Position numbers and translations under genes: made by a program. The notes beneath the pieces were generated by a model that was not told the origin of the DNA, searched no databases, and was given only the letters and a program-made list of their open reading frames with translations. A DNA stretch of 64,000 nt from a virus (taxonomy: Duplodnaviria > Caudoviricetes): positions 10,912-74,911 of the IMG/VR virus record IMGVR_UViG_2890351070_000001, one strand, 5' to 3'. How positions within the stretch are numbered: position 1 is the first letter of the stretch; every line of letters begins with the position of its first letter. This document shows, one piece after another, positions 147 to 24,556 of this stretch.

Positions 147-1046
147 ATGCCAGGGTATAGTTCGCCAGGTGGCCATGGAAGCGATATAGGTGATCGTAGA
201 AGTAATAGTCCAAGTAGTACTCCTGGGGGAAACCCAGAGGGAGGTAGAGAAAAGAGGGATTGGAGTAAAAGAAATGCTGATGCAAGAGCTAAAGCCCAGA
301 AAGCAGCCAAACCAAAGGAGGTTGTTAAAGAAAAGAGAGGAGGATGGAAGCCTACTCCAAATATTGAAGAGATGGAATTTTATGATCCATCTCTGGATTG
401 GAGTCAAAATGTTGATCGTTATAACCAAAGTCAGGGCATAGGGAAGTATGGAGGGGGGGCTAATTCCAAACTTGGCTTTCATGAGATGCGTAATCGATCT
501 CAATTAAAAACTCCAGCAGCGAAACAAACATATTCTCAAAGAATTGCAGAAATAAATCATCCTGTTCAATCTGCGTTACGAGGTTTTTTATCTCATTTTG
601 TTCCTGGAGTAGTTGCATCAAAACTCACATACGATGCACAAGGTAATCTTGCAGATTATAGCGAGTTTGATCCGATTGACATGGCGACAGATTTAATTGC
701 AGTTGGTCCTAATCCGGGAATAAGAAAAGCACCTCAAATCGCTTATGGTGCCTTGAGACAAGCAGGATACGGTGCAAAGCCCTATACATCTATCCGATCA
801 CTGCCAGATGCTATGGCACAGGCCGCTCAAAGCAGTCGACAGCAAATGTCCCTGCGGAATTCATCAAATACAACTAGTAGATCTGTTTATGATCGAGCAA
901 CTCAGCAACTTTATCCAGTGGCTCCAAATGAAGAAGATTTACCCAACTTAGGCATTGGTGTTTCCCAAGGGAAATCCAGAGTACGCAAAGCACCAAAGCT
1001 ATCAACGCTAAAAGCCAGACGTGCAAACTTCGGTAGGGTGAGATAA
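147..1046 (+). CDS. phage hypothetical protein preceding portal (G/S/R-rich N-terminus, basic C-terminus)
   Basis: ATG 147 after AAGGA; homologous to 45428-46363 (shared KRDWS, YN..GIGKY.G, LG.GVSQGKS.VR.AP.LS.L). Confidence 0.75.
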   Translation: MPGYSSPGGHGSDIGDRRSNSPSSTPGGNPEGGREKRDWSKRNADARAKAQKAAKPKEVVKEKRGGWKPTPNIEEMEFYDPSLDWSQNVDRYNQSQGIGKYGGGANSKLGFHEMRNRSQLKTPAAKQTYSQRIAEINHPVQSALRGFLSHFVPGVVASKLTYDAQGNLADYSEFDPIDMATDLIAVGPNPGIRKAPQIAYGALRQAGYGAKPYTSIRSLPDAMAQAAQSSRQQMSLRNSSNTTSRSVYDRATQQLYPVAPNEEDLPNLGIGVSQGKSRVRKAPKLSTLKARRANFGRVR

Positions 1047-1364
1047 ATGGGATTAGCTAGTTTTTCATCTTATAATTATGAACCCACGAAAGACAGAGAT
1101 GTTGGGTTTCTAAAGAATAGCCTTTCATCCAACCGAGAAAATATAAGTGCCTCTCGGTCTTCTGGCAGTTCTAGCGGAAGCTTTCAAGCATCTCGGAGTT
1201 TGGATGGTGGATGGCGTTCACCTGAACAGGTTCTGTATCCAACTGTTAATAATCCAAAGCCTTTATTGACGCCCTATACCAGTTTGGCTCCATCACCTGT
1301 CCGACGGGTTCGTGGTTTGGCCACGTTAAATTTATACCGTCCTGAATATACCAAAATTCGTTGA
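1047..1364 (+). CDS. small Ser-rich basic protein, resembles C-terminus of the upstream gene
   Basis: Abuts upstream stop; QVLYP...VRRVRGLATLNLYRP parallels QQLYP...VRKAPKLSTLKARR. Confidence 0.55.
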   Translation: MGLASFSSYNYEPTKDRDVGFLKNSLSSNRENISASRSSGSSSGSFQASRSLDGGWRSPEQVLYPTVNNPKPLLTPYTSLAPSPVRRVRGLATLNLYRPEYTKIR

Positions 1365-1383
1365 GATTTATCTGCGTTATACT

Positions 1384-1431
1384 TTGTTTGAGTATAGGGG
1401 TAGCGGTATATTCGTTCTTGGATAAATAGGT
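1384..1431 (+). promoter_or_regulatory. sigma70-like promoter with module-1-specific downstream motif
   Basis: TTGTTT-17nt-TATATT followed by CGTTCTTGGATAAATAGGT, 17/19 identical to the motif at 13478-13496. Confidence 0.65.
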
Positions 1432-1504
1432 TCTTTGAATGTTACAATTGATCGACTGCCTCGTCGGTTTATCGAAATTAGAAAATTATGACGGACAAGT
1501 CTTG

Positions 1505-1538
1505 AACCCCTCGTATTTGATACGAGGGGTTTTGTTTT
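1505..1538 (+). terminator. intrinsic terminator in the leader of portal 1
   Basis: AACCCCTCGTAT-ttg-ATACGAGGGGTT followed by T-rich tract. Confidence 0.75.
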
Positions 1539-1583
1539 GGAGGCTTTGTTTTACTAGGGCAAATATAGTGAACTGGAGATCTT

Positions 1584-3245
1584 ATGGAACTTGCTGAGAA
1601 GGTAATTAATCGTCAGGCCGCGTTGGCAAATGAACGATCCAAGTTTGACAAGATCTGGGTGGAAACGGCTGAACGCCTCGATCCTTTCGGCTCGATACTG
1701 GAGGGCAGACGTGGGGACATGTCAAAGATGTTCAGCTCCCGTCCTTTACAGGATCTGGCGCGTTTTTCTGCGGCAATCGAAAGTCTGCTCATTCCACGGG
1801 GATCAATCTGGCATGGGTTAGAGCCTGTCGATGATGATTTGCGAGAGAGCGATGAAATTCAGGCCTGGGCAGAACAGCGTACGAAGAAGCTCTTTTCCAT
1901 TCGGTATATGGCGAGATCAGGCTTTGTCTCAAACACTCAACGGATGTTTCGGTCATTGGGGTGTTATGGCAATCAGGTGCTGATGACAGAGGAAGTACTA
2001 TCCAGAGGTCCGGGCGGTGAAGATTTGCCTCCTATTCGTTATCGCATGATCCCGATTATTGAATGCTTTCTGGCAACCACGGCCTGGGGACAGGTAGATA
2101 CCTTCTACCGGGTTTATAAGCTTACACTACGCCAGATTATTGATGAGTTTGGTCTGGAGGCTTTGCCTGAGTTTTTGATGACCCGATTGGACAAGCCAGA
2201 CTTGTTGGAAGAAAAGTTTGAAATTATCCATGCCATAGATACGACCCTGAGTGGGGATACGCAAACTGCCCTTCCCTGGCCATCTGTTCATGTTCTCAAA
2301 GGTCATCATCATGTCTTACGGCAGTCCGGCTATTACGAATTTCCCATTCACGCGTCATCATTCGTAGAGAGTGACGGCGAAGCTTATGGATGGGGGCCGG
2401 GCATGATGGCCCTGCCGGATATCAAACAGCTCAATGTGATGAACAAGACAACGATTGCAGCGGCTGAACAGGCAGTGTCACCAGCCTTTGCAACGGTGCA
2501 AAAGCTTAAGCGTAGACTGAATCTGAGTGCCAATGCAATCAATCCAGATCTTGTAACAGATGATGGACGTTTAAAAATTCAGCCAATTGTGACTGGTGCA
2601 CGACCGGATATCGGAGAACAATTGATTGCCAAGAAGCAGATGGATATCAGTGCGAATTTTTATGGGGATCTTTGGCAGATCCTTGTGAACAAGCCGGATA
2701 TGACCGCCTATGAAGCGGCGTTGCGGGCGCAGGAAAAGAACGAATTGATTGGGCCACCTTTTGCCAAGCAGGAAGAAATGCTGGCGTCTATGGTGATGCG
2801 TGAAAATGCAATTCTGGAACGACAGGCAGAGGACGGCATTATTGATTTGCCTCCTCGACCGGATGGATTAGAGGGCAAAAGTCTGACCCTGAAATTTACC
2901 AGCCCCATGGCTAAATTACGTCGTGCGGCAGAAGATGTGGGTATTCAACGGACGTTGGAAACGGCTGCGCAGCAGGCACAGTTCGACCCGACGATAATGG
3001 ATAACTTTGACCATGACCGTATTATTCGTGCCCGTGCAGATATTAATGGTATGCCCGCAGATTTGATGCGGCCTGTGGAAGACGTACAGGCAAGTAGACA
3101 GGCAAAAATAGATGCGGAGCAACAGCAGTTGATGGCGGCGCAGCAAGCACAGGATGTTGATACCGCAGGGAAAGCCTTGCCGATAATGGAAGCACTGGGG
3201 GCGGCTGGACTTAACCCTGATCAGATCCCGGAAGGAGAGGTTTAA
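1584..3245 (+). CDS. portal protein (head-tail connector, Bbp21-like)
   Basis: 553 aa, YGWGPGMMALPDIKQLN and MTAYEAALRAQEK motifs of podovirus portals; position; paralog of 46962-48602. Confidence 0.9.
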   Translation: MELAEKVINRQAALANERSKFDKIWVETAERLDPFGSILEGRRGDMSKMFSSRPLQDLARFSAAIESLLIPRGSIWHGLEPVDDDLRESDEIQAWAEQRTKKLFSIRYMARSGFVSNTQRMFRSLGCYGNQVLMTEEVLSRGPGGEDLPPIRYRMIPIIECFLATTAWGQVDTFYRVYKLTLRQIIDEFGLEALPEFLMTRLDKPDLLEEKFEIIHAIDTTLSGDTQTALPWPSVHVLKGHHHVLRQSGYYEFPIHASSFVESDGEAYGWGPGMMALPDIKQLNVMNKTTIAAAEQAVSPAFATVQKLKRRLNLSANAINPDLVTDDGRLKIQPIVTGARPDIGEQLIAKKQMDISANFYGDLWQILVNKPDMTAYEAALRAQEKNELIGPPFAKQEEMLASMVMRENAILERQAEDGIIDLPPRPDGLEGKSLTLKFTSPMAKLRRAAEDVGIQRTLETAAQQAQFDPTIMDNFDHDRIIRARADINGMPADLMRPVEDVQASRQAKIDAEQQQLMAAQQAQDVDTAGKALPIMEALGAAGLNPDQIPEGEV

Positions 3246-3249
3246 GGAT

Positions 3250-3531
3250 ATGCTTAAAGGCTGGCCCTTTTCCCTGCAAAAACAACACGAACTTGTCGAG
3301 GCTTATAGTCGACTTTTTGCGTCAAGTGATGGTCAGATTGTTTTGGCCGATATTCTTGACCAGGCGCAAGCTTTTGAGGCGACGCCCCCTGATGGGCCGT
3401 CTGTCTTCAATGACGGAAAGCGTGCTGTTGCGTTTGATATTCTTCGTAAAGCTTCTGTCAGTTCTGACTTAAGAGCAGAGCTGGCAAAAGCAACTTATCT
3501 GAAACAAGAGGAAGATACACAGAATGAGTGA
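3250..3531 (+). CDS. Bbp19-like small phage protein
   Basis: AY.RLF...DGQIVLADI...FNDGKRAV motif, directly after portal. Confidence 0.75.
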   Translation: MLKGWPFSLQKQHELVEAYSRLFASSDGQIVLADILDQAQAFEATPPDGPSVFNDGKRAVAFDILRKASVSSDLRAELAKATYLKQEEDTQNE

Positions 3532-4333
3532 CGATCCCGGTTCAAGTAGTCATGAGTTTTCGGGAGCCGAAAGTCCCGGTTATTCACAACCTTCTCCAGA
3601 TCAGCCCGCATCGCAAGATAGCGGGTCTTTTTATGCCGAAAATTCAAGCTATGCTCAAAACCAAAGTAATGATGACGGTGTAAATACCCAGGTTTTTGAA
3701 GCGCATGGTGGGGCATCCAATGAGGTTCTTCCAGAAAGCGAAGATCATACCATTGGGCAGGATGGTTATATCAAGTTACCCACAGAAGGGGCCAATGAAG
3801 ACGAAATTGACGCTTTTTATGAAGCGTTGGGCGTGCCGGAAACCCCGGATGGTTACGAACTGGAAGTTCCTGAAGAGCTCAGTTCTCAGCATAGTGAGGA
3901 AGACTGGAAAGCCTATACCGGAGCTATTAGTGAGTTGTCGCATGCACTGGGGCTTTCGCCAGAACAGGCACAGGCCCTGGCTGATATGGATTTACAGGCC
4001 AAAACACAATCCATGGAAAACATGGAGCGTGAGCAAGAACAGTATCTGAGCCAACAAATTGAGGAAACCACGGAAACGCTTCGCGATGAGTGGGGATCCA
4101 AAATGGATGTGAATGTCAGAACTGCCAATCGTGCCCTGAAGGCATTGGGTGGTTCTGAACTTGAGGGGGTGTTGTCTGAGGCCGGGGTTCTGAACGACCC
4201 TGTTGTCATTCGCGCCTTTCATAAAGCTGGCCTCTCCCTGGTAGAGGACAGCAGCCCCGGCGGTGCCGGTGCAACCAGACGCAACAAATCTGCTGCGGAA
4301 ATTCTCTACCCATCATCTACTAAGGAAGGCTGA
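3524..4333 (+). CDS. capsid scaffolding/assembly protein
   Basis: Acidic; LGVPETPDGYEL, LSPEQAQAL, LRDEWG motifs; precedes capsid gene. Confidence 0.8.
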   Translation: MSDDPGSSSHEFSGAESPGYSQPSPDQPASQDSGSFYAENSSYAQNQSNDDGVNTQVFEAHGGASNEVLPESEDHTIGQDGYIKLPTEGANEDEIDAFYEALGVPETPDGYELEVPEELSSQHSEEDWKAYTGAISELSHALGLSPEQAQALADMDLQAKTQSMENMEREQEQYLSQQIEETTETLRDEWGSKMDVNVRTANRALKALGGSELEGVLSEAGVLNDPVVIRAFHKAGLSLVEDSSPGGAGATRRNKSAAEILYPSSTKEG

Positions 4334-4335
4334 TC

Positions 4336-5355
4336 ATGGCTACACTTGGAAATACTTTTGTCGATCTTATCGATATTTACAAACAAACTGATCCAAATGG
4401 TTCTACGGCAACCATTATTGAGCTTCTCAAACAGCAAAATCCTATTCTGGATGATGCGATTGCGATGGAGTGTAATAAAGGATCAGAACACCTGCATACC
4501 ATTCGTACCGGTTTGCCGTCTGTTTCCTGGGGCGCGTTGTATCAGGGGATCACGCAATCAAAAGCCAAGCAGCAACAGGTAACCGATACAACAGGTTATC
4601 TGGAAGCTTTGGCAACCATTGATGAGCGTGTTCTAAGCTTGTCAAAAAATGAAGCGGGTGTCCGTCTTAACGAAGCTATGGCGTTCATGGAATCAATGAA
4701 CCAGGAAGCGGCTTCGGGGCTGTTTTATCATGACACAGCCTCTACCCCTGAAAAGTTCAAAGGGCTTTCTGCGCGATTTAGTGCCATTGGTGGCGGCGGT
4801 GCCGGCGAACAGGTCATTGACGCTGGTGGTACAGGATCTGACAACACGTCTATCTGGTTTGTTACCTGGGGCGATCGTCATTGTCATCTGCTTTATCCGC
4901 AAGGCACAAAAGCTGGCTTGCAACGGGACGATATGGGCCGTCAACGCGTTTTGGATGAAAACAATAATCCATACTATGTGAAGGAAGAAAAATTCACATG
5001 GCATCTTGGTTTGGCGGTCAAAGATTGGCGTTATGTATCCCGTGTTGCCAACATTGATGTGTCTGAAATGCAGGCGGGTAATGTGAAACTGTATGATTTC
5101 ATGCGTAAAGCCTATTACAAGCTGCAAAGTCGTATCCGTCGCGGAGATGCGGCAGGCGGTCGTCAGGTTATCTATTGTAACCGTGATGTGCTTGAAGCTT
5201 TGGACGCACTAGCCACGAATGCCGGGGCCGGAGACAACTTTGTTCGTCTGAAAGACAGTGAACTGGAAGGTCAGGAAGTTCTGACCTATCGCGGTATTCC
5301 AATTCGTGAAACCGATGCGTTGCTCAATACTGAAGCACGCGTTTTGTCTGCTTAA
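4336..5355 (+). CDS. major capsid protein (BPP-1 Bbp17/epsilon15-like HK97 fold)
   Basis: 339 aa, IRTGLPSVSW and GTGSDNTSIWFVTWG motifs; near-identical protein at 49573-50592. Confidence 0.92.
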   Translation: MATLGNTFVDLIDIYKQTDPNGSTATIIELLKQQNPILDDAIAMECNKGSEHLHTIRTGLPSVSWGALYQGITQSKAKQQQVTDTTGYLEALATIDERVLSLSKNEAGVRLNEAMAFMESMNQEAASGLFYHDTASTPEKFKGLSARFSAIGGGGAGEQVIDAGGTGSDNTSIWFVTWGDRHCHLLYPQGTKAGLQRDDMGRQRVLDENNNPYYVKEEKFTWHLGLAVKDWRYVSRVANIDVSEMQAGNVKLYDFMRKAYYKLQSRIRRGDAAGGRQVIYCNRDVLEALDALATNAGAGDNFVRLKDSELEGQEVLTYRGIPIRETDALLNTEARVLSA

Positions 5356-5437: not shown

Positions 5438-5860
5438 ATGATTCATAGTAAGCAACTCACCTTCTCTGATCAGCAGGCAATTACCAGTACTGCTGCATCA
5501 ACCAACATTCTTGATCTTGGTGCAACCGGAACAGTTGTCGGTGCATCTGCTACGCTGCCAAGTAACCCTGGTGATGGTACTGCGGTGCCGTTGAATGTAC
5601 AGGTGACAGAGGATTTCAACAATCTGACGTCACTTAAGATTGGAATTGAAGTGGATAGCACAACAAGCTTCTCTTCTCCGCGTGAAGTATTGTCCCAGTC
5701 TATTGTACGGGCCGACCTCGTCGCTGGTAAACAGACGTCTTTCCACATTCTGCCCAAAGGTTTGAATGAACGTTATATGCGTCTGCGTTATACCGTGACG
5801 GGCACAAATCCGACCAACGGTAAAATTTCGGCGGCAATTGTGGCCGGAGTGCAGAGTTAA
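5438..5860 (+). CDS. capsid cement/decoration protein (Bbp16-like)
   Basis: FSDQQAIT...STNILDLG, RYMRLRYTV, GKISAAIV motifs. Confidence 0.82.
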   Translation: MIHSKQLTFSDQQAITSTAASTNILDLGATGTVVGASATLPSNPGDGTAVPLNVQVTEDFNNLTSLKIGIEVDSTTSFSSPREVLSQSIVRADLVAGKQTSFHILPKGLNERYMRLRYTVTGTNPTNGKISAAIVAGVQS

Positions 5861-6132: not shown

Positions 6133-6166
6133 AAAACGGGAGATCGGAACACTGATCTCCCGTTTT
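6133..6166 (+). terminator. intrinsic terminator after head genes
   Basis: AAAACGGGAGATC...GATCTCCCGTTTT inverted repeat. Confidence 0.75.
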
Positions 6167-6199: not shown

Positions 6200-6778
6200 A
6201 TGAGCAGCAAGGTTGAAATCTGTCGGGATGCTTTGCAGATCCTGGGGGATAAATCGATTGTCAGCCTGGAAGACAGCAGCAAAGAAGCACGACAGTGCAA
6301 GATTGCCTATCCCAGAGCGGTAGAGACCGTCTTGCGTAGCTATCCCTGGTCGTGCGCCATTCGTCGGGTCAAACTGGCTGCATCAGCAGAAGTATCTGCT
6401 TTTGGAGAGTGGAAACGATATCGCCGCCCGGTTGATGACATTCAGGTTTTGCCGATCACAACGACAGGTGAAGCCAATGGCTTACCCGTGACCTATCAAC
6501 TAGAGGGACGGTATATCCTGTGCCACCAAGACGCACCGCTTTATTATCGCTATATCAGTAGTGAGGTTGAACCGTCTGATATGCCGCCGGATTTACGCCG
6601 TGTTGTGGCAACTCAGTTGGCCGTGAGATTGGCAGAGGTTCTGACCGGATCGCAAACCAAATTGAATATGGCTCTTGGTCTCTATCGGAATGATTTGGCT
6701 CAGGCAAAAGCCAACGACATGATGGAAGATGGTGTGAGTGATATTATGTCTTCATCATGGGTGGAGGCGCGAAACTGA
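6200..6778 (+). CDS. tail adaptor / tail tubular protein A-like
   Basis: ATG 6200; EICRDALQILG...VLRSYPWSCAIRR; protein identical to 51394-51972. Confidence 0.82.
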   Translation: MSSKVEICRDALQILGDKSIVSLEDSSKEARQCKIAYPRAVETVLRSYPWSCAIRRVKLAASAEVSAFGEWKRYRRPVDDIQVLPITTTGEANGLPVTYQLEGRYILCHQDAPLYYRYISSEVEPSDMPPDLRRVVATQLAVRLAEVLTGSQTKLNMALGLYRNDLAQAKANDMMEDGVSDIMSSSWVEARN

Positions 6779-8541
6779 TGCCACCAAGAACCCTTCAGGC
6801 CAGCTTTGTTCGCGGCGAGATTACGCCCCGATTACATGGACGGGAAGATACACAGCTTTACCAAACAGGATTGGCGCTGTGCGAAAACTGGATCGTCCTC
6901 CCGCATGGTGGCATGACGCGGCGTCCTGGAACACGATTTGTCGCAAAAGCAAAACATGCGGATAAAGAATGTCGCCTTATTTCGTTCGAATATTCGACAG
7001 AAGACGCCTATATTCTGGAAATTGGCGATCTTTACATGCGGTTTTACCGTGATTTCGGGCAAATAGAAAAAGATGATGCCCCCTATGAAATTACCACACC
7101 TTATAAGGAAGAAGAGCTGTTTGATCTGGTTTTTACCCAGACGGAAAACAGTCTGTGGATTGTGCACAAGGATCATCCGCCAAAAGAATTGAAACGAAAT
7201 GATCATGCCGATTGGGCCTTGGCGGATATTACCTTTACCGCCAAACCGTCGGAATGGAAGGCAGGGAATTATCCCAGACGTTGCTCCTTTTATCAGCAGC
7301 GATCTATTTTTGCCTCACCACCTGATCAGCCACAAACCATCTGGACATCGAAAACATCTAATGAGAAAAATTTCACTTTAGGCACCAATGCTGACGATGC
7401 GTTTAAAGCCACGATCAAGGCCGGACAAGTCAACCACATTCAATGGATGGTCGAGGGACGTGCCCTAATGATGGGGACATCCGGAGCCACAAGGACATTG
7501 AGTGGATCTTCGGCCAATGAAGCCCTGACGGTTACGTCGGTTATCAACCGCCGCCATACCACCGAGGGATCAGCGGCTATTCCACCTATCCAGAAGGGGG
7601 AGGTGGCTCTATTTTTAAGCCGGAATAGAAAACGGTTGCATGAATTTGTGTTCTCGTTTGAGCGAGACAGCTTTATTGCGCCCGATCAAACCTTTTTATC
7701 CCAACATATAACGGGAACCGGGATCAAGGATATGGACATGGTCAATGACCCTGATTCCATTATCTGGATGGTCCGGGACGATGGACAACTGGTTGGCGTT
7801 ACTTATGAAAAATCTCAAGAGGTTGTCGCGTTCCACCGTCATAAGCTGGGCGGTTCAACAGACGAACATGAGTGGGGCGAAGTTGAAACCGTTGCTGTGA
7901 CCTATGAAGCCAAGCGTGAAGTTTTGTGGCTGTCGGTTAAACGTAAAGTCAATGGAGAAATTGTGCGCCACATTGAATTTATGGAAGCCGGGTTTGATGA
8001 TGGTCTGGACAAAAAAGACGCCTTCTTTGTGGATTGCGGCGGAACCTATGAAGGTGTCGCGGCGAACACAATTAATGGTTTTGATCATCTGATCGGGCAA
8101 GAGGTGGATATATTACACGATGGCAAGGTGTCTCCGCGATCAACGGTGGCAAATGATGGCAAGGTATCGCTAAAAAATAACCGTACAGGTTTGAAAATTA
8201 CAGCTGGCTTGCCTTACCAGTCGGTCGTACAGCCCTTGTCCCCGATTGTTGCTTTGCAAAATGGGACAGGCCGAGGCAAGAAAAAGCGTGTTGTTTCCAT
8301 GGGCGTTGATGTGATGAACACGGGAACAATCGAAGCCGGAGACAGCCTGGAAGACACTCAAACACATATCTTCCGCGATGGATCAACACCCTTTGGTCAA
8401 TCCCCGGATCTCTACACCGGGTACTTGGAAATTGATCCGGAAAACGGCTTTAGCGACAAGGCGCAAATTTTTATCAGAGCAAGACAGCCGTTACCGGCTA
8501 CTATCCGGTCACTCATCACAGAAGTACAGTCAGAGGGGTAA
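6778..8541 (+). CDS. tail nozzle / tail tubular protein B-like
   Basis: TGATG coupling; SFVRGEITPRLHGR and PHGGMTRRPGTRFV N-terminal motifs. Confidence 0.85.
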   Translation: MPPRTLQASFVRGEITPRLHGREDTQLYQTGLALCENWIVLPHGGMTRRPGTRFVAKAKHADKECRLISFEYSTEDAYILEIGDLYMRFYRDFGQIEKDDAPYEITTPYKEEELFDLVFTQTENSLWIVHKDHPPKELKRNDHADWALADITFTAKPSEWKAGNYPRRCSFYQQRSIFASPPDQPQTIWTSKTSNEKNFTLGTNADDAFKATIKAGQVNHIQWMVEGRALMMGTSGATRTLSGSSANEALTVTSVINRRHTTEGSAAIPPIQKGEVALFLSRNRKRLHEFVFSFERDSFIAPDQTFLSQHITGTGIKDMDMVNDPDSIIWMVRDDGQLVGVTYEKSQEVVAFHRHKLGGSTDEHEWGEVETVAVTYEAKREVLWLSVKRKVNGEIVRHIEFMEAGFDDGLDKKDAFFVDCGGTYEGVAANTINGFDHLIGQEVDILHDGKVSPRSTVANDGKVSLKNNRTGLKITAGLPYQSVVQPLSPIVALQNGTGRGKKKRVVSMGVDVMNTGTIEAGDSLEDTQTHIFRDGSTPFGQSPDLYTGYLEIDPENGFSDKAQIFIRARQPLPATIRSLITEVQSEG

Positions 8542-8545
8542 AGTT

Positions 8546-8989
8546 ATGGGATGGTTCAAAAATATATTTAAAGGTGTCAAAAAAGTTTTAAAAGGCGCGG
8601 TTCCTGTTGTTGCAGGCTTAGCAGGTATTGGCGGACTGGCATCGACGGCTGGTTTGCTTGGGGCAGGTGGGGCTCTTTTTAACGGTTTTTCCCAACGTAA
8701 ACGTGCCAAAAAACAGGCCAAAATGGCCCGAAGATTTGCGGCACAAGAGGCCGCGATTAGCCGGCGAAATACACAACGTTTGGCGGGGCAGCAACGTGCC
8801 AATTTTGCAGCGGCAGGCTTGAAAATTGAAGGCAGCCCAGCTTTGTTGATTGAAGAGACTGAAAAACTGGGGGCGCAGGAAGTTGATAATATTCTCTACG
8901 CCGGAAATCAGAAAGCCAAAGCTTATAAACGTGCCGGAAACAACGCTATGATCGGTGGCTTCTTGAATGCGGGATCAAGCTTCTTATAG
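8546..8989 (+). CDS. small internal virion (ejection) protein
   Basis: Gly/Ala-rich hydrophobic segments; GQQRANFAAAG..IEGSPALL shared with 53736-54203. Confidence 0.75.
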   Translation: MGWFKNIFKGVKKVLKGAVPVVAGLAGIGGLASTAGLLGAGGALFNGFSQRKRAKKQAKMARRFAAQEAAISRRNTQRLAGQQRANFAAAGLKIEGSPALLIEETEKLGAQEVDNILYAGNQKAKAYKRAGNNAMIGGFLNAGSSFL

Positions 8990-9088: not shown

Positions 9089-9670
9089 ATGTTTATGACA
9101 GCTATTCAGTCACGTTTTAAGGAAATAGAATTCAAACGGGTATTGAAAGCCTTTATCATTTCTATACTGGTTCTTTTTCTTCTGACCTTTGTATATGAAT
9201 TTATTGATAAAATTTATTATGACTTTATTTCTATAGATGAAAAGAACCCTCAAAAGACAAATATGCTTCTGGAGAGAGTTCTGGAGTTGATCATAAAGTT
9301 TTCGCTTTATTTAATTCTCTATCAAATTCCGTCAAATTTGCCTGTTCTCTTGGGGGGATTGGTCCTGAATTTCTTTAAAGTGAAACGGATCATTTGGACA
9401 TATTTGCTCTTTGTTATCTGCTTCATTTCATATGATATTTATAACCTGTTTGAATTTATGTATCCACGTCAAGGTCCATCAACGTTTGGTTATAGCACGA
9501 GGGATTGCGTGGCTATTGTTGACAATGTTCGGACCGCTTGCGGGTATGAAATCTGGGCAAAAGGTTTTTTTGTGGATTTAGCTGAAGGTTTGATTGGTGC
9601 CGTAGTTTATTTGAGATTTTATCAAAAAGGAACAAAAGAGAATGTCAGACAAGTGGCAGATAAATATTGA
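9089..9670 (+). CDS. multi-pass membrane protein, no counterpart in the prophage copy
   Basis: About 4 hydrophobic helices, AT-rich DNA, CVAIVDNVRTACG loop. Confidence 0.65.
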   Translation: MFMTAIQSRFKEIEFKRVLKAFIISILVLFLLTFVYEFIDKIYYDFISIDEKNPQKTNMLLERVLELIIKFSLYLILYQIPSNLPVLLGGLVLNFFKVKRIIWTYLLFVICFISYDIYNLFEFMYPRQGPSTFGYSTRDCVAIVDNVRTACGYEIWAKGFFVDLAEGLIGAVVYLRFYQKGTKENVRQVADKY

Positions 9671-9819
9671 TCTGTAGGATGTTTTAATCCGCCACTTCAG
9701 ATCATAGTTTTTACCTTATCGTGTATAATCTCTAATTTTTTTTAGATCCACGCATTGCTGCTGGACTTGTTTTTTTCTGTCACAAATTCAGTTGGTTCAA
9801 GCTCAAAGGGTTTCCAAAA

Positions 9820-10161
9820 ATGCCAAATATTCCGGATAGTCGTACACCAGAAACTGTTAGATTTCAGCTTCCCGATGAGAATGTCAAAGATCTTGTCGAT
9901 GGGTATGAGTCTTTGGTGAAGGGAATTAAACGCAGGGGCTGGGATAAAAAACTGGATGCCTTTTTCTTTGGTGAACCAGAGGATGTTATTGATTCTGATG
10001 AAAAGCTTAAAAGCCATCGAGATGAGGCTTTAGAAGAGAAAGCCAAGATGAATAAGTTGAGAAAGCAGGCCGTTCACGAGAAATATAATCCAGGCTTACT
10101 TGGGGGGTATGCTGCTAATTCTTCATTGCTGTTTCGGACGAAGAAAACACGAAGGGTATAG
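9820..10161 (+). CDS. short protein with ejection-protein-like N-terminal leader
   Basis: Starts MPNIPD..RFQLPDEN like 10386 (MRNIPD..RFELPEEN) and 54203 (MPNIPD). Confidence 0.6.
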   Translation: MPNIPDSRTPETVRFQLPDENVKDLVDGYESLVKGIKRRGWDKKLDAFFFGEPEDVIDSDEKLKSHRDEALEEKAKMNKLRKQAVHEKYNPGLLGGYAANSSLLFRTKKTRRV

Positions 10162-10385
10162 GAAAATAATCTCTGAGAGCGCTTCGATTTGTTCGTTATT
10201 GAAAGAACATAAGCAGAGGTTTGTGACCTAGCTAGTCTTTGTGTTGTTGCTTTCTCGTTGTCCCGTTTGCGGGCAGATAAAACTTATCCAAAATCACCAT
10301 ACCTAATTTGCAAGGTCCGGTAGTTTATACACTGGGCCTTTTTTTATTCCGAGTATTTCTGGCTCGTACAACGAGGTTTTTTGCC

Positions 10386-13300
10386 ATGCGAAACATTCCT
10401 GATAATCAGGTATCGACCACAGCTCGATTTGAACTTCCTGAAGAAAACAGCGCCACAATTGAAAATGGCATTTCCCACCTTTCCAGTACCGTCGTGTTGC
10501 GTGAAACCCAAGAAAATAAAGAACAGAAAACATACCGGACGGAAAATGCTGATGATGGTGGACTGTTGGATGATATAAAATCCGGGATAGATACTGTATC
10601 AGAATACTTGCACAACACTTTGCAGGATGTCGATCTCCATGACGGCATTTCTGAGCTTACCACAAATATCTATCGGGGAGTTGTTGATCTAATCAATTTT
10701 GAAAATCTTTCCCCAACAGAAGTCCGGAAAAAAGTAGATCAGGAATATGGCGGAATAAAAGCCGAACTTTCTACTCGTCATAAAAAGGAGGCTCCAGAAC
10801 AAGCACACAAATTTGACGAAAAACTGGATAAAAAGATCAGTGCGGATAAACAGTATATTGAAAGTTTGCAGCAAAGTGCTTACCAGAAAAAAGCTTTTGG
10901 TACGATTGATCGTCTAGCTAAGAAATATGGTCATGGTGTTACGCAAAGCCCGGAAACCTTGACGGATGCTATGATTTCTATTGAGGATACTGTTAATAAG
11001 CTGGCTCCCGGAATTGGGCGGGATAGGGCCGTTACCAAAATAAAAGAAACGCGGGGAGTATTGTTTAACAACGCATTGCAGGGATATACGGATCAAAAAA
11101 ATTATATCGCAATTCAATCTCTTTTGGATGGCATTGATCCGGTGACGAATGCAAGGTTGAACAGTGGCGATTATATCACAGCAGAAGAGAGAGACTATTT
11201 CCAAAACCTGGCTGGCAAAGGATTAAGGCGTGAGGCGGCATACCAATTACTGGATGAAGTTGAGGCCCAGGTTATATCAACGGATGAGTTGTTGGATGCT
11301 TTGCAAAATCATCCCGATAGCAGTCTTGGTCAGGAAGCACTGTCCCTTTGGCAAGACAGAAAGCGAATTGAAAAAAAGGTAAACAGAGACCGGGCCAAAA
11401 AACAACGCTATTCAGTATGGCAAAATATTACAGAGACTAACGGTAATGTTGATGTCACTGATTTACCTTTGGATCTATCCGATGAAGATCGGGATCTATT
11501 CATTTCCTATCTGAATAATAAAGATGATCTGAACATGGGATTGTATGATCCCAAAGGCCCGGGCGCCAAGATTACGGACGTGCTCCTTTATGAAATAAAG
11601 AAGTTGCAGATAGCGAACCCGGACATTTTCGCAGATCGGGATTTATCTGGTTATTTCAGAGAGTTATCCCCCCAGAAAATTGCCCGGGTCATCGCAATGC
11701 AAGAAAACGGACTTGATCCCAAAGATGCCGCCAGTTTCAAAATGCGTGAAAGAGAGGCCCTCAGGGCTTGGAAACAAGTGACGGGCCGTAATGGTTATGA
11801 CGAACCGGACCGACAGGAGTTTATTAACTTCAGCATTCGTTTCGGCGAAGAAATTGACGACTTTATTACGCTTGAAGAAAGACCTGCAAGCGGTGGGGAT
11901 ATCAACAAAATCGCCAACAGGATGATTGAAAGTGATGAGATGATTTCACTAGAGAACGTGGATGAAGCACTTAGCGATGGAGAACAAGAGTTCTTTGAAA
12001 ATGAAAGAGATTTAAATGTTGATTTTCCAGTAACTGTATCAAATGAAGAAGAATTTAACAATTTAATTGAAAAGCAGGTTGAACTTCCAGAAGGAGTGAC
12101 AGCAACTTTTGTAGAAGATGAACAGACAGCTCTTGATGATAAGCATACAGGAAAACCAAGCTACAATGTTATCTTTCACGATGCAGATGGAAATCTTATA
12201 GATGGCCCTGCAACTATGAAACGTCTTCCTGGAGAGACTAACGAACAAAGCCATCTTAGGTATGTGCCGGGAGAGGGGTTTTTGAAAGATCAACCAAGAA
12301 ACAAAAAACAATATAATCTGGCGAGTACGGCTGCCAGGGATTACATCTACGGAATTCGTGGACGACATCCAGTAAATGAAGATGAAGAAAAAGAGATCTT
12401 CCTGTTAGCTGAAAATATCTACGGCATTATCCGGGAAGAGTACGGTGATGAGAATCATATCTCACAAGGTGAAATCTATACGATGGTTGATGACCTTGCT
12501 GCTGAAGGTAAAGCTCCTCGATTAAATGGATATAAACCACCAACTACACAATTAGGGCGAGATTTAGAGAAATACTACAAAGAAACGAATGTATTTGGAC
12601 GGTTTAGAAATGGGTTTATGTATGGCGCAAGAGGGATTATGGCCTCAGGTAATATTTCAATTGGGTTGAATCATCTTGAGCAGAGTGAACGTTTCGGAAA
12701 TTGGGCGGATAGAAAGCAAAAACAACTCGAAGCAGAAGAAGTTGCAATACGTAAAAAAGCAGAACATCTAGGCGTTGATTTTAAGGATGTCGAGCATTTA
12801 CTTTCACCAACTCGTATGAAGGTTAAAGAATATAGAAGATCTGAACAAGAGTATAGAGAAAACTTTATTGGCTTTATTACCAGAGGCGCAGAGTTTAAAG
12901 AGTTAATGGAGCAGGGGCGTCGAAATCCAGTTATAGTGGCAATGGAAAAAGTAGAAAATCCAGACGAATTTTGGGAGTTAATGTCTTATGATCCTATGGG
13001 TGTTGTTGGACAATATTTTCTAGAGAATTTGGCTAGCACTGCGGTAGATATGGCTAGTGGTGTCGTCGGAGGCCCCGCTGCCAGTGCTGCAGTTTCAGGC
13101 TCATTAGAGCACTCTAAGGTTCTAATGGAAAAATTAGAAGAATACGGTGCAGATTTGAAGGACCCCAAAAGCGTCCAAGAAACAATGACGGAACATGGCG
13201 ACGAAATAAGAAAAGATGCGAGAGTACAAGCATTTGTTGCTGGTGCTGCGAGTGTTATGACGGGGTGGATGGTTAACTCTGCAGTTAAAAAGCCGATTGT

Positions 13301-13430
13301 TCAAAAGGCATTAGAACCAGGTGGCAAGGTCGTCGAAGTAATAGGAGAAAATACTGTTTCTGCTGTTGGGAATGTTTTTTTGACACCATCTTCTAAATCT
13401 GTTGTTCGAGATGTGATTAGAGTACCTTAA
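10386..13430 (+). CDS. large internal virion/ejection protein, chimeric (1014 aa)
   Basis: N-terminal third similar to 54203-56275 (LLDGIDP motif), remainder unrelated; hydrophobic G/A segments near C-terminus. Confidence 0.72.
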   Translation: MRNIPDNQVSTTARFELPEENSATIENGISHLSSTVVLRETQENKEQKTYRTENADDGGLLDDIKSGIDTVSEYLHNTLQDVDLHDGISELTTNIYRGVVDLINFENLSPTEVRKKVDQEYGGIKAELSTRHKKEAPEQAHKFDEKLDKKISADKQYIESLQQSAYQKKAFGTIDRLAKKYGHGVTQSPETLTDAMISIEDTVNKLAPGIGRDRAVTKIKETRGVLFNNALQGYTDQKNYIAIQSLLDGIDPVTNARLNSGDYITAEERDYFQNLAGKGLRREAAYQLLDEVEAQVISTDELLDALQNHPDSSLGQEALSLWQDRKRIEKKVNRDRAKKQRYSVWQNITETNGNVDVTDLPLDLSDEDRDLFISYLNNKDDLNMGLYDPKGPGAKITDVLLYEIKKLQIANPDIFADRDLSGYFRELSPQKIARVIAMQENGLDPKDAASFKMREREALRAWKQVTGRNGYDEPDRQEFINFSIRFGEEIDDFITLEERPASGGDINKIANRMIESDEMISLENVDEALSDGEQEFFENERDLNVDFPVTVSNEEEFNNLIEKQVELPEGVTATFVEDEQTALDDKHTGKPSYNVIFHDADGNLIDGPATMKRLPGETNEQSHLRYVPGEGFLKDQPRNKKQYNLASTAARDYIYGIRGRHPVNEDEEKEIFLLAENIYGIIREEYGDENHISQGEIYTMVDDLAAEGKAPRLNGYKPPTTQLGRDLEKYYKETNVFGRFRNGFMYGARGIMASGNISIGLNHLEQSERFGNWADRKQKQLEAEEVAIRKKAEHLGVDFKDVEHLLSPTRMKVKEYRRSEQEYRENFIGFITRGAEFKELMEQGRRNPVIVAMEKVENPDEFWELMSYDPMGVVGQYFLENLASTAVDMASGVVGGPAASAAVSGSLEHSKVLMEKLEEYGADLKDPKSVQETMTEHGDEIRKDARVQAFVAGAASVMTGWMVNSAVKKPIVQKALEPGGKVVEVIGENTVSAVGNVFLTPSSKSVVRDVIRVP

Positions 13431-13448
13431 AACGTTTTTTGAGATGAA

Positions 13449-13496
13449 TTGTTCACCCCTTATCCTCCATCTATAATCATTCTTGGATAAACAGGT
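13449..13496 (+). promoter_or_regulatory. sigma70-like promoter with module-1-specific downstream motif
   Basis: TTGTTC-17nt-TATAAT then CATTCTTGGATAAACAGGT. Confidence 0.7.
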
Positions 13497-13499
13497 CTC

Positions 13500-13528
13500 A
13501 ACCTCTGCTTTTTAGCAGAGGTTTTTTT
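13500..13528 (+). terminator. intrinsic terminator in the leader of tail fibre 1
   Basis: AACCTCTGCT-tttt-AGCAGAGGTT followed by T run. Confidence 0.78.
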
Positions 13529-13544
13529 ATTGGGAAAATCTGAC

Positions 13545-14453
13545 ATGACTATTTCTGCGACACCGCGGAGGGCCTCTTACACCGGGGATGGCTCTACGGT
13601 AACTTTTGCTGTGCCCTTTAAGTTTCTTGCCGATAACCACTTGAAGGTTGTGGTGACAATGCCAAGCGGAGCTGAAACTCTTGTGACACCTTCGCAAATA
13701 AGTGGTGCGGGAACCGAAAGTGGTGGCTCTGTAACACTTTCTTTTGCACCTGTTACGGGGGATACGGTCACAGTTCTGGGAGCGACACCGTTGGAGCAGC
13801 AAACTGATCTCGCGGTATCAGATGGTATGCCCGCCGACGTTATTGAAACCGCTGTTGATCTGTTGACCATTCAGAACCAGGAACAGGACGTACAGATTGG
13901 TCGGGCAATTAAGTTACCCATTGCCTATTCAGGGGATGAGTTGCAATTCCCGGCACCGGTGCCCAATGAAGTGCCCTATTATGATGAAAATGGCAAACTG
14001 GTGATGTCATCAGTTGGCTTTAGCACCTTGATGTCGACGGTTCAGGATTTGATTAATCTCGCCAATGACACTGGTCAGGCACATACCCATGATTTTTCGG
14101 TTTTGACCGGAACAGATCAGGTTCTTTTGGCGAATTTATCCCGAATTTTGGGGGTGAGTTACCCGACCGCTGTTAATTCATATGGCAATACGACAGATAA
14201 TCCTGTGATTGATCTGACCAAAACCTTCCTCACATCAATGACCAATAATGGCAATGGGGTCATAACGGCGGATAAAGCCAATAACAACTCTGTTGATGTC
14301 TGGTTGACCAATGGACCGACAGCAGGGGCATTGGATATTTCCAGCTTTGATTATGTGAAGGGATCATTTGGTGTCGGGGACGGTGTGATCACCATCATGC
14401 ATATGTCTACCGTCAACGGCATTGCCCGCGTTGCGTTAGAGGTGTTGGAATGA
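13545..14453 (+). CDS. tail fibre anchor protein (T7 gp17-like N-terminal domain)
   Basis: YTGDGSTVTFAVPFKFL motif; N-terminal half shared with 59519-60868. Confidence 0.82.
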   Translation: MTISATPRRASYTGDGSTVTFAVPFKFLADNHLKVVVTMPSGAETLVTPSQISGAGTESGGSVTLSFAPVTGDTVTVLGATPLEQQTDLAVSDGMPADVIETAVDLLTIQNQEQDVQIGRAIKLPIAYSGDELQFPAPVPNEVPYYDENGKLVMSSVGFSTLMSTVQDLINLANDTGQAHTHDFSVLTGTDQVLLANLSRILGVSYPTAVNSYGNTTDNPVIDLTKTFLTSMTNNGNGVITADKANNNSVDVWLTNGPTAGALDISSFDYVKGSFGVGDGVITIMHMSTVNGIARVALEVLE

Positions 14454-17992: not shown

Positions 17993-17994
17993 TC

Positions 17995-18546
17995 ATGAAA
18001 TATGCAATTGAAAAAAATGGGACCCTTGTTTCTCAAATAAGCGGTTGGACACTCGGACTAGCAAAGAAATGTAACCTTATAGGGAACAAACAGGCTCCTC
18101 AAGATTTGCCATTTGATTTGGGGGATGGCGCGACGCTTAGGGTTGTTCGGACTGTTAAAGCTAGTCCAACACCTTATCAATATGTTGTTGATGATGGTGC
18201 ATTGGTCGGGAATGAATGGGTTATCTCTCAAACAGCAAAGGACAAACCTACAGATCAAATTAGCACTCAAAAACGATTAGATATTAATATTGAAGCTGCT
18301 CGTCGGATCGAAAACATCGCACCGATCTGGAAACAGATTAGGGGGAGTGAACGTGCCATTGAATTACTTGAGATAAAAAGCACGAGGGAGTGGGGTGAAG
18401 ATGAGATTGTTGAGGCTGATTATCTTCGAGCAAAACGTAAAGAAATTGAGGCCATTCGCTCAAGGTCAAATGCTTTGATGCTTCTACCAGATGAAGAATT
18501 GATAAAAGTCGATGTTCTTGATGATATGACATGGCAAACATCATGA
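17995..18546 (+). CDS. putative tail fibre assembly/chaperone protein
   Basis: Position; INIEAARRIE..APIWKQ...IEAIRSRSN pattern. Confidence 0.55.
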   Translation: MKYAIEKNGTLVSQISGWTLGLAKKCNLIGNKQAPQDLPFDLGDGATLRVVRTVKASPTPYQYVVDDGALVGNEWVISQTAKDKPTDQISTQKRLDINIEAARRIENIAPIWKQIRGSERAIELLEIKSTREWGEDEIVEADYLRAKRKEIEAIRSRSNALMLLPDEELIKVDVLDDMTWQTS

Positions 18547-18572
18547 TTGATACAGTGCTAAGAGGAGAAAAC

Positions 18573-18743
18573 ATGGATAAATTTATCGGTGTTACAGCTG
18601 TATCAACTCCTTTATGGCTTCATTATTTTAACACTGGTATCGCGATCTGTGTTGGTCTTGGAGGCGTGTTGTTACTTGGCTTCAGGATAGCAAAGGCCAG
18701 ACAAGATTACTTAAAGGCGAAAGAGGAGAGGGGGAAGTCATGA
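18573..18743 (+). CDS. putative holin
   Basis: 56 aa, hydrophobic helix, basic tail, GAGGAG RBS, ATGA-coupled to endolysin. Confidence 0.55.
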   Translation: MDKFIGVTAVSTPLWLHYFNTGIAICVGLGGVLLLGFRIAKARQDYLKAKEERGKS

Positions 18744-19111
18744 CAAAATTGAATTGGCCCGACTATCCCAACTTCTCGGCCTCAGAGTTTGCTTGCAAGT
18801 GTGGCTGTGGGCGTGCTGATATGAAGCCTGAGTTTATGGAAAAGCTGCAAGAGCTTCGTAACCAAGTAGGACCTCTGGAAATCACAAGTGGTTTTCGTTG
18901 CAAGAACCATCCCGTTGAGAAGAACAAAAAACGACCCGGCGCACATTCAGCAGGACTTGCTGCGGATATCATCCCGCTTAAGGCAAGGCGTTACGAACTA
19001 CTCATCACCATTAGCGACATGCGTTTTAGGGGCATTGGGGTTGCTAAATCTTTCATTCACATAGACGAGGGTCACCCATACGCATATCGCCCCGCGTCCT
19101 GGAGTTATTAG
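18740..19111 (+). CDS. endolysin, peptidase M15A family
   Basis: EFACKCGCG, ITSGFRC, H..GLAADI, FIHID zinc peptidase motifs. Confidence 0.88.
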   Translation: MTKLNWPDYPNFSASEFACKCGCGRADMKPEFMEKLQELRNQVGPLEITSGFRCKNHPVEKNKKRPGAHSAGLAADIIPLKARRYELLITISDMRFRGIGVAKSFIHIDEGHPYAYRPASWSY

Positions 19112-19125
19112 GGAAGCTATTCACC

Positions 19126-19443
19126 ATGAAACACATACTGATAACAGTCGCTCTTGTAGCGGCTTTTTTTATGTCTGCCTGCACAACACCGGGCGGCAAT
19201 CGTCTGAGTGCTGAACAGCAGGTGCAGATTACCTGCGAAGGCATTATCTCAACGGTGCGGGTCCTTGCCGGTTATCGTGCTGCCGGTGAACTGTCAAAGG
19301 AAACGGTAAAGACTGTTACTGATTTGATGCCATCTACTGTGAAGCTCTGCTCTGGCGAGGTGACAGATTATCAATCTGCCCTGACCACCTTGCAGGAAAC
19401 GGCTTTTGTTCTTCTGACTGTAAAGAAAGGTGTTGAATCATGA
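19126..19443 (+). CDS. lysis-region lipoprotein
   Basis: Signal peptide with MSAC lipobox; near-identical to 61983-62300. Confidence 0.7.
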   Translation: MKHILITVALVAAFFMSACTTPGGNRLSAEQQVQITCEGIISTVRVLAGYRAAGELSKETVKTVTDLMPSTVKLCSGEVTDYQSALTTLQETAFVLLTVKKGVES

Positions 19444-19628
19444 ACCCGGCAACAATCGCAACAGTAAACGCGCTTATTGAAATCGGTGTGTTTGCATTTA
19501 AATCAATCAAGGCCGTTCAAAACGGTGATAAAACGCCAGAAGAGATCCGCGCTGAGTGGCCTGCTATTTCTGCAAAGTTAGAGGATGCCTGGACAGCTTG
19601 GGAGGCGGCAGGAAAAACCAATGGCTGA
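19440..19628 (+). CDS. small lysis-region protein
   Basis: ATGA coupling; near-identical to 62297-62485. Confidence 0.7.
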   Translation: MNPATIATVNALIEIGVFAFKSIKAVQNGDKTPEEIRAEWPAISAKLEDAWTAWEAAGKTNG

Positions 19629-20043
19629 TGGCTATGAGTTCACACCTGAATATGATCTAGCTCAGATTAAAGCATCTCGTCCGAGTGGCGGGGTGCTGGT
19701 CTGGGTATCGCCCGATGATCCGGATAATCCTTTTACGGCAGCATGCCCCCACCAGATCACAGGACCAAGAGGGATGTATGTTGTTGTTCCGGGTGGTTTC
19801 AACTACGACGGAGCAAGTGTTCCTCGTCCGTTGTGGTGGTTTATCCCCCGGGCTGATGCTCGGTTCTTTCGAGCAGCAACTTTACACGATTTGCTATACG
19901 GAACCCACGAAGGTTCACGAGCTGTAGCAGATGCCATAATGCGTATTGTCGCGGAACAAGATCGTATGCCGTGGCTCAAACGTTGGGTTGCTTATATTGC
20001 TGTTAGGCTGGGCGGGCAGGCTGCTTGGTTGAATGATGGCTAA
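19621..20043 (+). CDS. DUF1353 family protein
   Basis: VPGGFNYDGASVPR...AATLHDLLY...ADAI...AVRLGG. Confidence 0.85.
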   Translation: MADGYEFTPEYDLAQIKASRPSGGVLVWVSPDDPDNPFTAACPHQITGPRGMYVVVPGGFNYDGASVPRPLWWFIPRADARFFRAATLHDLLYGTHEGSRAVADAIMRIVAEQDRMPWLKRWVAYIAVRLGGQAAWLNDG

Positions 20044-24554: not shown

Positions 24555-24556
24555 AA

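Follow-up and report, generated by a model that had tools for sequence, protein, structure and literature searches.

The 64,000-nucleotide stretch of DNA analyzed here (the window) comprises bases 10,912–74,911 of a single 74,911-bp virus record, IMGVR_UViG_2890351070_000001. It holds most of a 26.7-kb terS-to-lysis gene cluster, E1, which runs from terS in the record to window position 20,043 and is followed by a temperate prophage, P2, at a tRNA-Ser gene. We propose, with moderate confidence, that E1 is what remains, as the packaging, virion and lysis half, of an old temperate podophage of the BPP-1 type now fixed in the chromosome of the marine genus Kiloniella; it would have been split from its control locus (R) and would make particles like those of gene transfer agents (GTAs) or of PBSX. 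Judged from its genes, E1 is a candidate GTA- or PBSX-like element of podovirus type, which would answer an inducing signal, produce particles and transfer DNA. An earlier note on the window had suggested a domesticated capsid system, GTA-, satellite- or protein-delivery-like, paired with its related prophage; the satellite and protein-delivery variants found no support.

Where does E1 end? The 10.9 kb to the left of the window (locus L001) were read too, and this segment and the E1 open reading frames (ORFs) were searched with Pfam and PHROGs; the window itself was scanned for tRNA genes and its ORFs were listed. The earlier note had seen no terminase, integrase or replication gene. The terminase genes do exist, just outside the window, whereas no integrase, repressor or replication gene was found by these searches between terS and the left-hand host gene. 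That gene encodes a topoisomerase IA–RecD2 helicase fusion (Topo-RecD2), and the proposed check of the upstream DNA for an integrase–repressor–replication set led instead from terS and terL to this cellular gene and, beyond it in relatives, to syntenic cellular genes that include two-component signalling functions (two histidine kinases, a periplasmic binding protein and a GGDEF-EAL response regulator). The fusion is unusual and is conserved in Kiloniella, Sneathiella and Aestuariispira; no phage record was found by tblastn to hold it whole, the only matches being half-length and at most 32% identical.

The Topo-RecD2 protein was used as a query on species-representative genomes and returned 18 loci, mostly from Kiloniella, at 49–96% aa identity; the whole E1 region was fetched from nine other genomes (K. 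majae, K. spongiae, EL199, K. litopenaei, two K. laminariae, K. antarctica and two metagenome-assembled genomes, MAGs). terS and terL stand directly beside Topo-RecD2 in 12 of the 18 loci. They are absent within 10 kb in five (two Sneathiella, Aestuariispira, one unclassified alphaproteobacterium and Kiloniella sp. GXU_MW_B19), and one further locus is a 3.3-kb fragment, too short for the comparison. The E1 site is thereby shared across species whose Topo-RecD2 proteins are only 61–87% identical. E1 is complete and collinear from terS to the DUF1353 gene in all nine other genomes, with no stop codons in the aligned parts; only p193 and p113 depart from this, with a short match or none in several genomes.

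The capsid gene, counted in 46 genomes of the GTDB family, is present in 11; in 10 of these it is at least 96% identical (aa), always at the same locus where the locus was examined. Eight of the nine other complete-E1 genomes hold a single capsid copy (5/5 in one set, 3/5 in a second) and are therefore without a P2-like prophage, so that E1 exists without P2 and the synteny sought in prophage-less relatives is indeed there. The ninth, K. laminariae G21630-S1, has a second, distant capsid gene (G009:C61:142385-143296, 54% aa); its source is probably another, unrelated prophage with this kind of virion.

At its right end, E1 lies 5′ of a complete tRNA-Ser(GCT), as the earlier note had stated, and homology with K. 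majae stops about 10 nt beyond the 3′ end of this gene. The tRNA is found to the right of E1 in five of the nine genomes (K. majae, EL199, K. litopenaei, EA05 and K. antarctica), and an E1 remnant in MAG G010 has it on the same side; for K. spongiae, both K. laminariae genomes and G027, the retrieved regions showed no tRNA. An ancestral empty site was not recovered, as no tRNA lies within 10 kb of Topo-RecD2 in five loci without E1.

These observations bear directly on the possibility that E1 is an ordinary second temperate prophage whose integrase, immunity and replication genes lie past the end of the contig. The contig does end 10.9 kb left of the window, the terminase-to-lysis set is full, and IMG/VR lists E1 as a provirus: the nearest IMG/VR records are the K. 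spongiae and K. litopenaei copies (terL 93–94%; next best terL 67%), both excised as proviruses. However, CheckV gives these copies a completeness of only 80% and 69%, respectively, the cellular Topo-RecD2 gene stands left of terS and is followed by syntenic signalling genes in relatives, and the same site is occupied in 12/18 loci. Used as a query, the P2 integrase had no match in the nine complete E1 regions, the G010 remnant or the GXU_MW_B19 region, and E1 lies 5′ of the tRNA with no repeat of a tRNA fragment. Without integrase or att site at its ends, with the homologous control genes 188–445 kb away and with a presence that is not sporadic, E1 does not look like an intact prophage, and we regard this possibility as largely refuted and very improbable. 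A megablast search of window 1–20,100 against phage records returned a single 523-nt match, at 74%.

E1 proteins are better conserved than their host neighbor (MCP, the major capsid protein, 96–100%, portal 84–99.6% and terL 82–96%, versus 61–97% for Topo-RecD2), and this holds for the comparison with K. laminariae (96%, 84% and 82%, versus 61–65%). We computed nonsynonymous (dN) and synonymous (dS) divergence by pairwise NG86 between K. majae, K. spongiae and K. litopenaei. The dN was 0.005–0.009 for MCP (dS 0.60–0.72), about 0.01 for p594 (dS about 0.8), and 0.02–0.03 for both portal (dS 1.0–1.4) and terL (dS about 0.95), against 0.07–0.11 for Topo-RecD2 (dS 1.0–1.3) and 0.04–0.20 for six other host neighbors (dS 0.85 to saturated). 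Core virion genes thus have a dN/dS of about 0.01–0.05 at a dS of 0.4–1.7, which bears out the suggestion that the module is under selection, and more than 20 intact reading frames would not be left in a neutral relic at such synonymous depth. Values of dN/dS above 2 for p216 in some pairs were alignment artefacts and were discarded.

A virion tree (portal, MCP, p594 and Bbp16) and a host tree (Topo-RecD2) agree on four clades, each with full support. The six-member clade with the E1 of the window does not include P2, whose deeper position is without support in the tree. The shared site, collinearity and clades correspond to the vertical transmission by which the viriform paper characterizes GTAs (PMC9662315). 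Descent was nevertheless not purely vertical: the low dS of E1 and the discordant dS of terS and terL, given below, point to some allelic replacement by homologous recombination between lineages.

How is E1 related to P2? As the earlier note had described, the portal-to-lysis operon is complete and collinear with the late region of the prophage: blastn found seven collinear blocks in the window, at 68–87% nt identity, that cover portal, capsid, cement, tail tube, internal protein, fibre N-terminus and lysis genes. Protein identity is 85% for portal, 94% for MCP, 100% over 192 aa for p216, 89% for p594, 93% for the endolysin and 90% for the DUF1353 protein, and ranges down to 56% for the scaffold protein; the cement protein has 64%. 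The claimed lack of frameshifts and the synonymous-only differences were confirmed, since the frames are unbroken and all 15 differences in the first 90 nt of genes 6200 and 51394 are synonymous (15/15). So were the different tail fibre and the rebuilt ejection genes: the large fibre, p183, p193, p113 and p1040 have no or a weak P2 counterpart, the ejection region matching at only 25% over 192 aa.

Two blocks, 6291–6790 and 7091–7290, are 100% identical to P2 (51485–51984 and about 52285–52484). In these blocks E1 is also 96–100% identical to the E1 of K. majae, a genome without P2, and the simplest reading is that the transfer ran from E1 to P2. The identical blocks, together with the discordant terS/terL dS between window and K. 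majae and an E1 dS below that of the host flank genes, could suggest that E1 is a functionless grounded remnant, overwritten by recombination with circulating P2-like phages, and that the selection seen is that of the phages and not of the host. We find this improbable: the transfer seems to have run the opposite way, a P2-like second capsid is absent from 8/9 other complete-E1 genomes (and the G009 copy is only 54% identical), the E1 tree repeats the host clades, and non-coding leaders and species-specific fibre genes are maintained as well. The pairing with P2 that the earlier note had supposed is incidental to the existence of E1, although DNA passes between the two elements and a copy of a host-type regulator is found in P2.

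The leaders ahead of the portal and fibre genes share one layout: a −10 hexamer, TTCTTGGATAAA(T/C)AGGT and a strong intrinsic terminator. The motif of leader 1 is in place in 10 of 11 regions compared, including the window and both K. laminariae regions, and G027 has no copy there. The fibre leader (leader 2) hardly varies between species, K. antarctica and K. laminariae included, even where coding dS is saturated. A GATGAATTG box lies ahead of the fibre leader in every region compared and ahead of terS in all except K. antarctica and one K. laminariae. The exact 17-mer leader motif occurs in two to three copies per genome and only inside E1 (5/5 genomes), so that the conserved promoter motif noticed earlier is indeed E1's own; the three strongest terminator hairpins of the scan also lie inside the E1 operon. 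P2 and the GXU_MW_B19 prophage have the same leader layout and positions, with the motifs ACGGATAC/ACGGATCA and CCGGATCA instead. The p105–leader segment with TTCTTGGATAAATAGGT is duplicated in K. majae M56.1 (G003:C1 about 270.6–271.4 kb), which has three motif copies and not two. As for E1 transcription, short metatranscriptome contigs (X8) fell on 22 of 30 bins of window 1–20,000, but DNA carry-over is possible and we discarded them as evidence; two polyA RNA runs had 0 reads on this interval.

Which genes could control E1? P2 contains two paralogous genes, regA and regB, that are homologous to a chromosomal gene of about 180 aa, Reg. Each matches one chromosomal homologue at E ≤1e-39 in 12 of the 46 family genomes: the ten that have E1, and also G010 and G029. 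Among 5.8 billion proteins only 22 belong to the Reg family, and those with a name are all Kiloniella hypothetical proteins; one further member, P0007, is 79% identical to regA and is probably the chromosomal Reg of the window genome itself. Locus R of K. majae consists of a helix-turn-helix (HTH)+Peptidase_S24 repressor, a 203-aa gene, homologues of P2 35015–35887 and 35547–36212, and then Reg. This is also the P2 order, and four other species show the block in synteny. Wherever both loci fall on one contig (8/8 genomes), R has the orientation of E1 and is located 188–445 kb upstream of terS. GXU_MW_B19 holds, at another site, a 50–70% identical relative in which repressor (44% to that of R), early genes, Reg, terL and virion genes are contiguous. 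From the homology of the R genes and this contiguous arrangement, we infer that E1 and R are the two parts into which a single prophage, now without its integrase, was divided.

Reg may be a late activator or antiterminator with element-specific targets, as the leader motifs suggest. The idea that it is a relative of GafA/DUF6456 was dropped, as regA and regB have no Pfam match at E ≤0.01 and the Reg model has no fold match; a Pfam scan of seven Reg members at E up to 5 returned only two unrelated families, each in a single Reg member. A Reg tree (8 rows, 115 columns) had 0 fully supported branches, and we make no claim from it on host capture of regA.

What would the two halves do together? 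The ancestral prophage would have lost its integrase and split, leaving E1 between Topo IA-RecD2 and tRNA-Ser and the control half R 188–445 kb upstream, with a putative cI/LexA-type repressor that has an S24 autoprotease domain, two or three early genes and the late regulator Reg. A signal, for example DNA damage, would inactivate the R repressor, and Reg would then be produced. Reg would cause RNA polymerase to start at the E1 late promoters and to pass the leader terminators (−10, TTCTTGGATAAAYAGGT, hairpin). Terminase, full-size heads, short tails and lysis proteins would be made, and DNA-filled podovirus particles would be freed by lysis. Since R and E1 are too far apart for one head and E1 is without excision and replication genes, the particles could not propagate the element as a virus; they would instead carry chromosomal DNA, like GTA and PBSX particles.

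Alternatively, E1 could be a self-transducing machine, induced through R to package by headfuls in situ from near terS and rightwards into full-size T=7 heads. The first headful would then contain E1 and the tRNA-Ser island hot spot, and later ones the chromosomal DNA next to it; homologous recombination would fix the DNA in recipient cells, and P2-like phages would carry regA to switch E1 on and would borrow E1 genes and fibres. Such a machine would explain the fixed site, an E1 that is more alike between species than its flanks, and the shuffled terS/terL alleles; even so, we consider it rather unlikely.

E1 could also have been domesticated for ends related to phages themselves, as a defence against related phages, as a killer particle or as a gene set that phages exploit through phenotypic mixing. 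P2 is without the E1-type leader motif although it has, in regA, a regulator candidate of the host/E1 type (79% identity with what is probably the chromosomal Reg), and P2 may thus switch on E1; moreover, the E1 fibre is different and fast-evolving, and P2 took up E1 DNA. On the other hand, terS and terL are conserved at 67–96% aa across E1 genomes, so that DNA packaging falls within the selected function, E1 is kept in eight genomes without a related prophage, and no known defence domain was seen in E1 proteins by a Pfam scan alone (PADLOC was not run). A phage-directed role is conceivable but, in our judgment, unlikely.

Several results weigh against a split, GTA- or PBSX-like E1. MAG G010 (C14 about 795–802 kb; L138-L140) keeps Topo-RecD2, terS, terL, an AraC remnant and tRNA-Ser, and its structural genes are deleted; neither MCP nor portal was found in G029, a genome of unstated completeness. 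At 26.7 kb, E1 is shorter than the approximately 41 kb expected for a capsid 94% identical to that of P2, and the whole of E1 could in principle be packaged, in contrast to classical GTAs with their small heads. The dS of E1 (0.4–1.7) is at or below that of six host flank genes (0.85 to saturated), and terS and terL have a dS of 0.6 to K. majae, whereas Topo-RecD2 has 0.16 and portal 0.06. Total promoter and terminator counts are not above those of shuffled sequence. Reg has no Pfam family, its AlphaFold2 model is mediocre, with a predicted local distance difference test score (pLDDT) of 64, and Foldseek against PDB gave 0 matches at E ≤0.001. The putative link of Reg and R to E1 comes from P2 homology, from co-occurrence in one clade, which is non-independent, and from co-variation of motifs in three elements. 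Beside these points, we observed that G010 keeps the Reg locus despite the loss of its structural genes.

To our knowledge, few independent phage domestications into particle-making host systems are known. The best-studied ones in Alphaproteobacteria are the siphovirus-type RcGTA family, which is controlled via CtrA/GafA, and the Bartonella agent; PBSX is a contractile-tailed, small-headed particle encoded at one locus. A literature search gave no paper that connects either Kiloniella or BPP-1-type phages to GTAs or domesticated particles. The viriform paper recognizes three independent GTA groups (PMC9662315), and Kogay et al. 2019 report 0 RcGTA-like clusters in five Kiloniellales genomes (PMC6821227). 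RcGTA is, like E1, a phage-derived head, tail, terminase and lysis cluster without integrase or replication genes in an alphaproteobacterial host, inherited with the chromosome under purifying selection and, as we propose for E1, regulated by a gene encoded elsewhere in the genome (PMC9662315, PMC6821227). The two have no homology, however: E1 has a BPP-1/T7-type portal, capsid, cement and tail tube (PF12236, PF25181, PF20911, PF21190 and T7-type tail PHROGs) and not the HK97-type siphovirus set. E1 heads are probably full size (the capsid is 94% identical to that of an approximately 41-kb phage), so that the E1 cluster would fit one head, and E1 control looks phage-like (a cI/S24 repressor) and not CtrA/GafA-like.

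PBSX, described as a GTA-like element that packages 13.4-kb fragments (PMC12946183), is like E1 a defective prophage that related species have in common and that encodes terminase, a complete virion and lysis functions; a phage-type repressor and the lack of self-propagation would be further shared traits. In E1 an HTH+Peptidase_S24 repressor adjoins Reg in R and would control the cluster in a PBSX-like manner, but E1 is of podovirus type and its control genes are split off by about 200–450 kb. The earlier statement that no podovirus-type domesticated particle is known is dated, as a 2026 paper proposes the FpGTA of Faecalibacterium as GTA-like, with podovirus-like morphology, two loci and conservation across species of the genus (PMC12946183). 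FpGTA belongs to another phylum, has operons of 10.5 and 5.5 kb and packages 8.4–8.9-kb fragments, whereas E1 is known from its genes, and the two were compared by description (PMC12946183). BPP-1-like temperate podophages (P2 and the GXU_MW_B19 prophage) share virion gene order, families and late-leader architecture with E1, and P2 proteins are 85–100% identical to E1 for portal, capsid and two tail-tube proteins; unlike them, the E1 locus has no integrase, immunity or replication genes, is fixed at one chromosomal position in the genus, and carries a leader motif and a fibre of its own. Like GTAs, the E1 cluster holds no self-mobility genes (integrase, excision, replication), by Pfam and PHROGs searches of its ORFs and of the 10.9 kb left of the window and by the integrase comparison in the nine other regions. 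Unlike tailocins, it has a conserved capsid, portal, terS and terL, and unlike phage satellites (phage-inducible chromosomal islands, PICIs; capsid-forming cf-PICIs; P4-like elements), it combines the absence of integrase and replication genes with a complete virion and lysis set of its own.

If E1 is what we propose, it would be an independent exaptation from a BPP-1-type podophage, in an order for which one survey reports no RcGTA-like clusters (PMC6821227). Its genes would encode full-size heads, its repressor and regulator would be of phage style but lie at a locus apart from the structural genes, and its leader–terminator switches would be conserved. The steps of its domestication would be readable, with a wild relative, P2, in the same cell and an unsplit relative in an outgroup species, and E1 would make it practicable to study how DNA returns from a domesticated element to an active phage.

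The E1 operon is unbroken on the + strand from 96 to 20,043 (portal, head, tail, fibre and lysis genes, by ORF listing and family searches), and its genes follow the BPP-1-type virion order: PF12236 portal, Bbp19, GP7 capsid and Bbp16 cement, then T7-type tail tube genes (Table 1). The first gene, p316, keeps its position while its sequence varies (87% aa in EL199, 28–68% over partial alignments in other genomes; the P2 counterpart, 45428–46363, is 31% identical). In the ejection region, p193 is 82–96% identical in the six-member clade where found and 35–43% in K. antarctica and G027, with no match in three genomes; p113 and p1040 are 32–58% identical across genomes except K. majae (100% and 91%). 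Aligned parts of these genes are without stop codons in relatives. The 56-aa membrane protein, which has one hydrophobic helix and lies directly ahead of the endolysin gene, is a putative holin.

Table 1. Features of E1, its flanks and P2. Positions are those of the window unless they carry a contig or locus prefix.
Feature	Position	Strand	Evidence and remarks
Topo IA–RecD2 fusion, at least 1338 aa	L001:1-4017	−	Toprim, topoisomerase IA, RecD2-type helicase (HHH, AAA_30, SH3_13); runs off contig, left of terS
terS	G000:C1:4260-4709		Terminase_2, PF03592; left of window
terL, 487 aa	G000:C1:4772-6235		86% aa to P2 terL; left of window
p316	96..1046	+	First + strand gene of structural block; no Pfam/PHROG match
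p105, small conserved protein	1047..1364	+	47–98% aa across species, about half-length in several genomes; no family match
Late leader 1	1400..1583	+	−10-like TATATT, motif TTCTTGGATAAATAGGT (core 1418-1426), intrinsic terminator 1504-1532 (13 pairs); ahead of portal
Portal	1584..3245	+	PF12236 8e-78; 84–99.6% aa across species
Bbp19-like head protein	3250..3531	+	PF25181 9e-13
Scaffold or protease-like protein	3524..4333	+	phrog_3742, phrog_458; 59–99% aa, least conserved head gene
MCP, BPP-1 GP7 type	4336..5355	+	PF20911 7.5e-133; 96–100% aa in 10 genomes
Bbp16-like cement protein	5438..5860	+	PF21190 6e-17
Internal terminator hairpin	6133..6166	+	15-pair stem, top match of scan; ahead of tail genes
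Tail tubular protein A-like (p216)	6200..6778	+	phrog_394 4e-42; contains P2-identical block 6291-6790
Tail tubular protein B-like (p594)	6757..8541	+	phrog_376 4e-174; 84–99% aa across species
Internal virion protein (p203)	8378..8989	+	phrog_418 8e-12
Three ejection/internal-protein region genes, p193, p113, p1040	9089..13430	+	No family match
Late leader 2	13431..13529	+	GATGAATTG box (13443), TATAAT, TTCTTGGATAAACAGGT (core 13483-13491), terminator 13500-13523 (10 pairs)
Tail fibre adaptor, T7 tail-fibre N-terminal type	13530..14453	+	PF03906 5e-4, below curated cut-off; 64–95% aa
Large tail fibre or receptor-binding protein, 1180 aa	14450..17992	+	DUF7483 2e-74; 40–74% aa between species; no P2 homologue
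p183, possibly fibre accessory protein	17995..18546	+	No family match; 47–96% aa across species
56-aa membrane protein, holin candidate	18573..18743	+	
Endolysin, Peptidase M15	18740..19111	+	PF08291 1e-10
Two more lysis-block genes (105 aa; DUF1353, 152 aa)	19126..20043	+	PF07087 1e-18; 90–94% aa to P2 copies
96-aa ORF and AraC/ExsA-type regulator	20145..21440	−	HTH_18, ExsA_N; right neighbors, not assigned to E1
tRNA-Ser(GCT)	21737-21827	+	Right landmark of E1; attachment point of P2
P2, complete temperate prophage	22009..62900	+	Integrase, cI-like repressor, regA 33393-33803, regB 36209-36667, terS/terL 37981-39901, virion and lysis genes; not part of E1

Among the flanking genes, the AraC/ExsA flank is also present in K. 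majae, K. litopenaei, K. antarctica and G027 and is absent from EL199 and both K. laminariae regions; the K. spongiae contig ends before it. At the other end, the K. antarctica, G027 and G010 loci (L110, L099 and L102) have an extra 2.5–3.4 kb between Topo-RecD2 and terS.

The right end of P2 may lie beyond the end of the contig: no repeat of the tRNA-Ser 3′ end longer than 13 nt was found in window 62,000–64,000. After the P2 lysis genes, window 62,897–64,000 contains, on the − strand, an 84-aa ORF and a gene for a non-specific endonuclease (PF01223), with no match downstream of the K. majae tRNA-Ser. In E1, terL is followed by about 5 kb of opposite-strand cargo (L001:6257-10824), including a TM2-domain protein, as in P2 (39898–42689). 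The cargo blocks of the two elements, which lie between terL and the portal region, encode paralogous secreted-looking proteins, and their content differs in every species.

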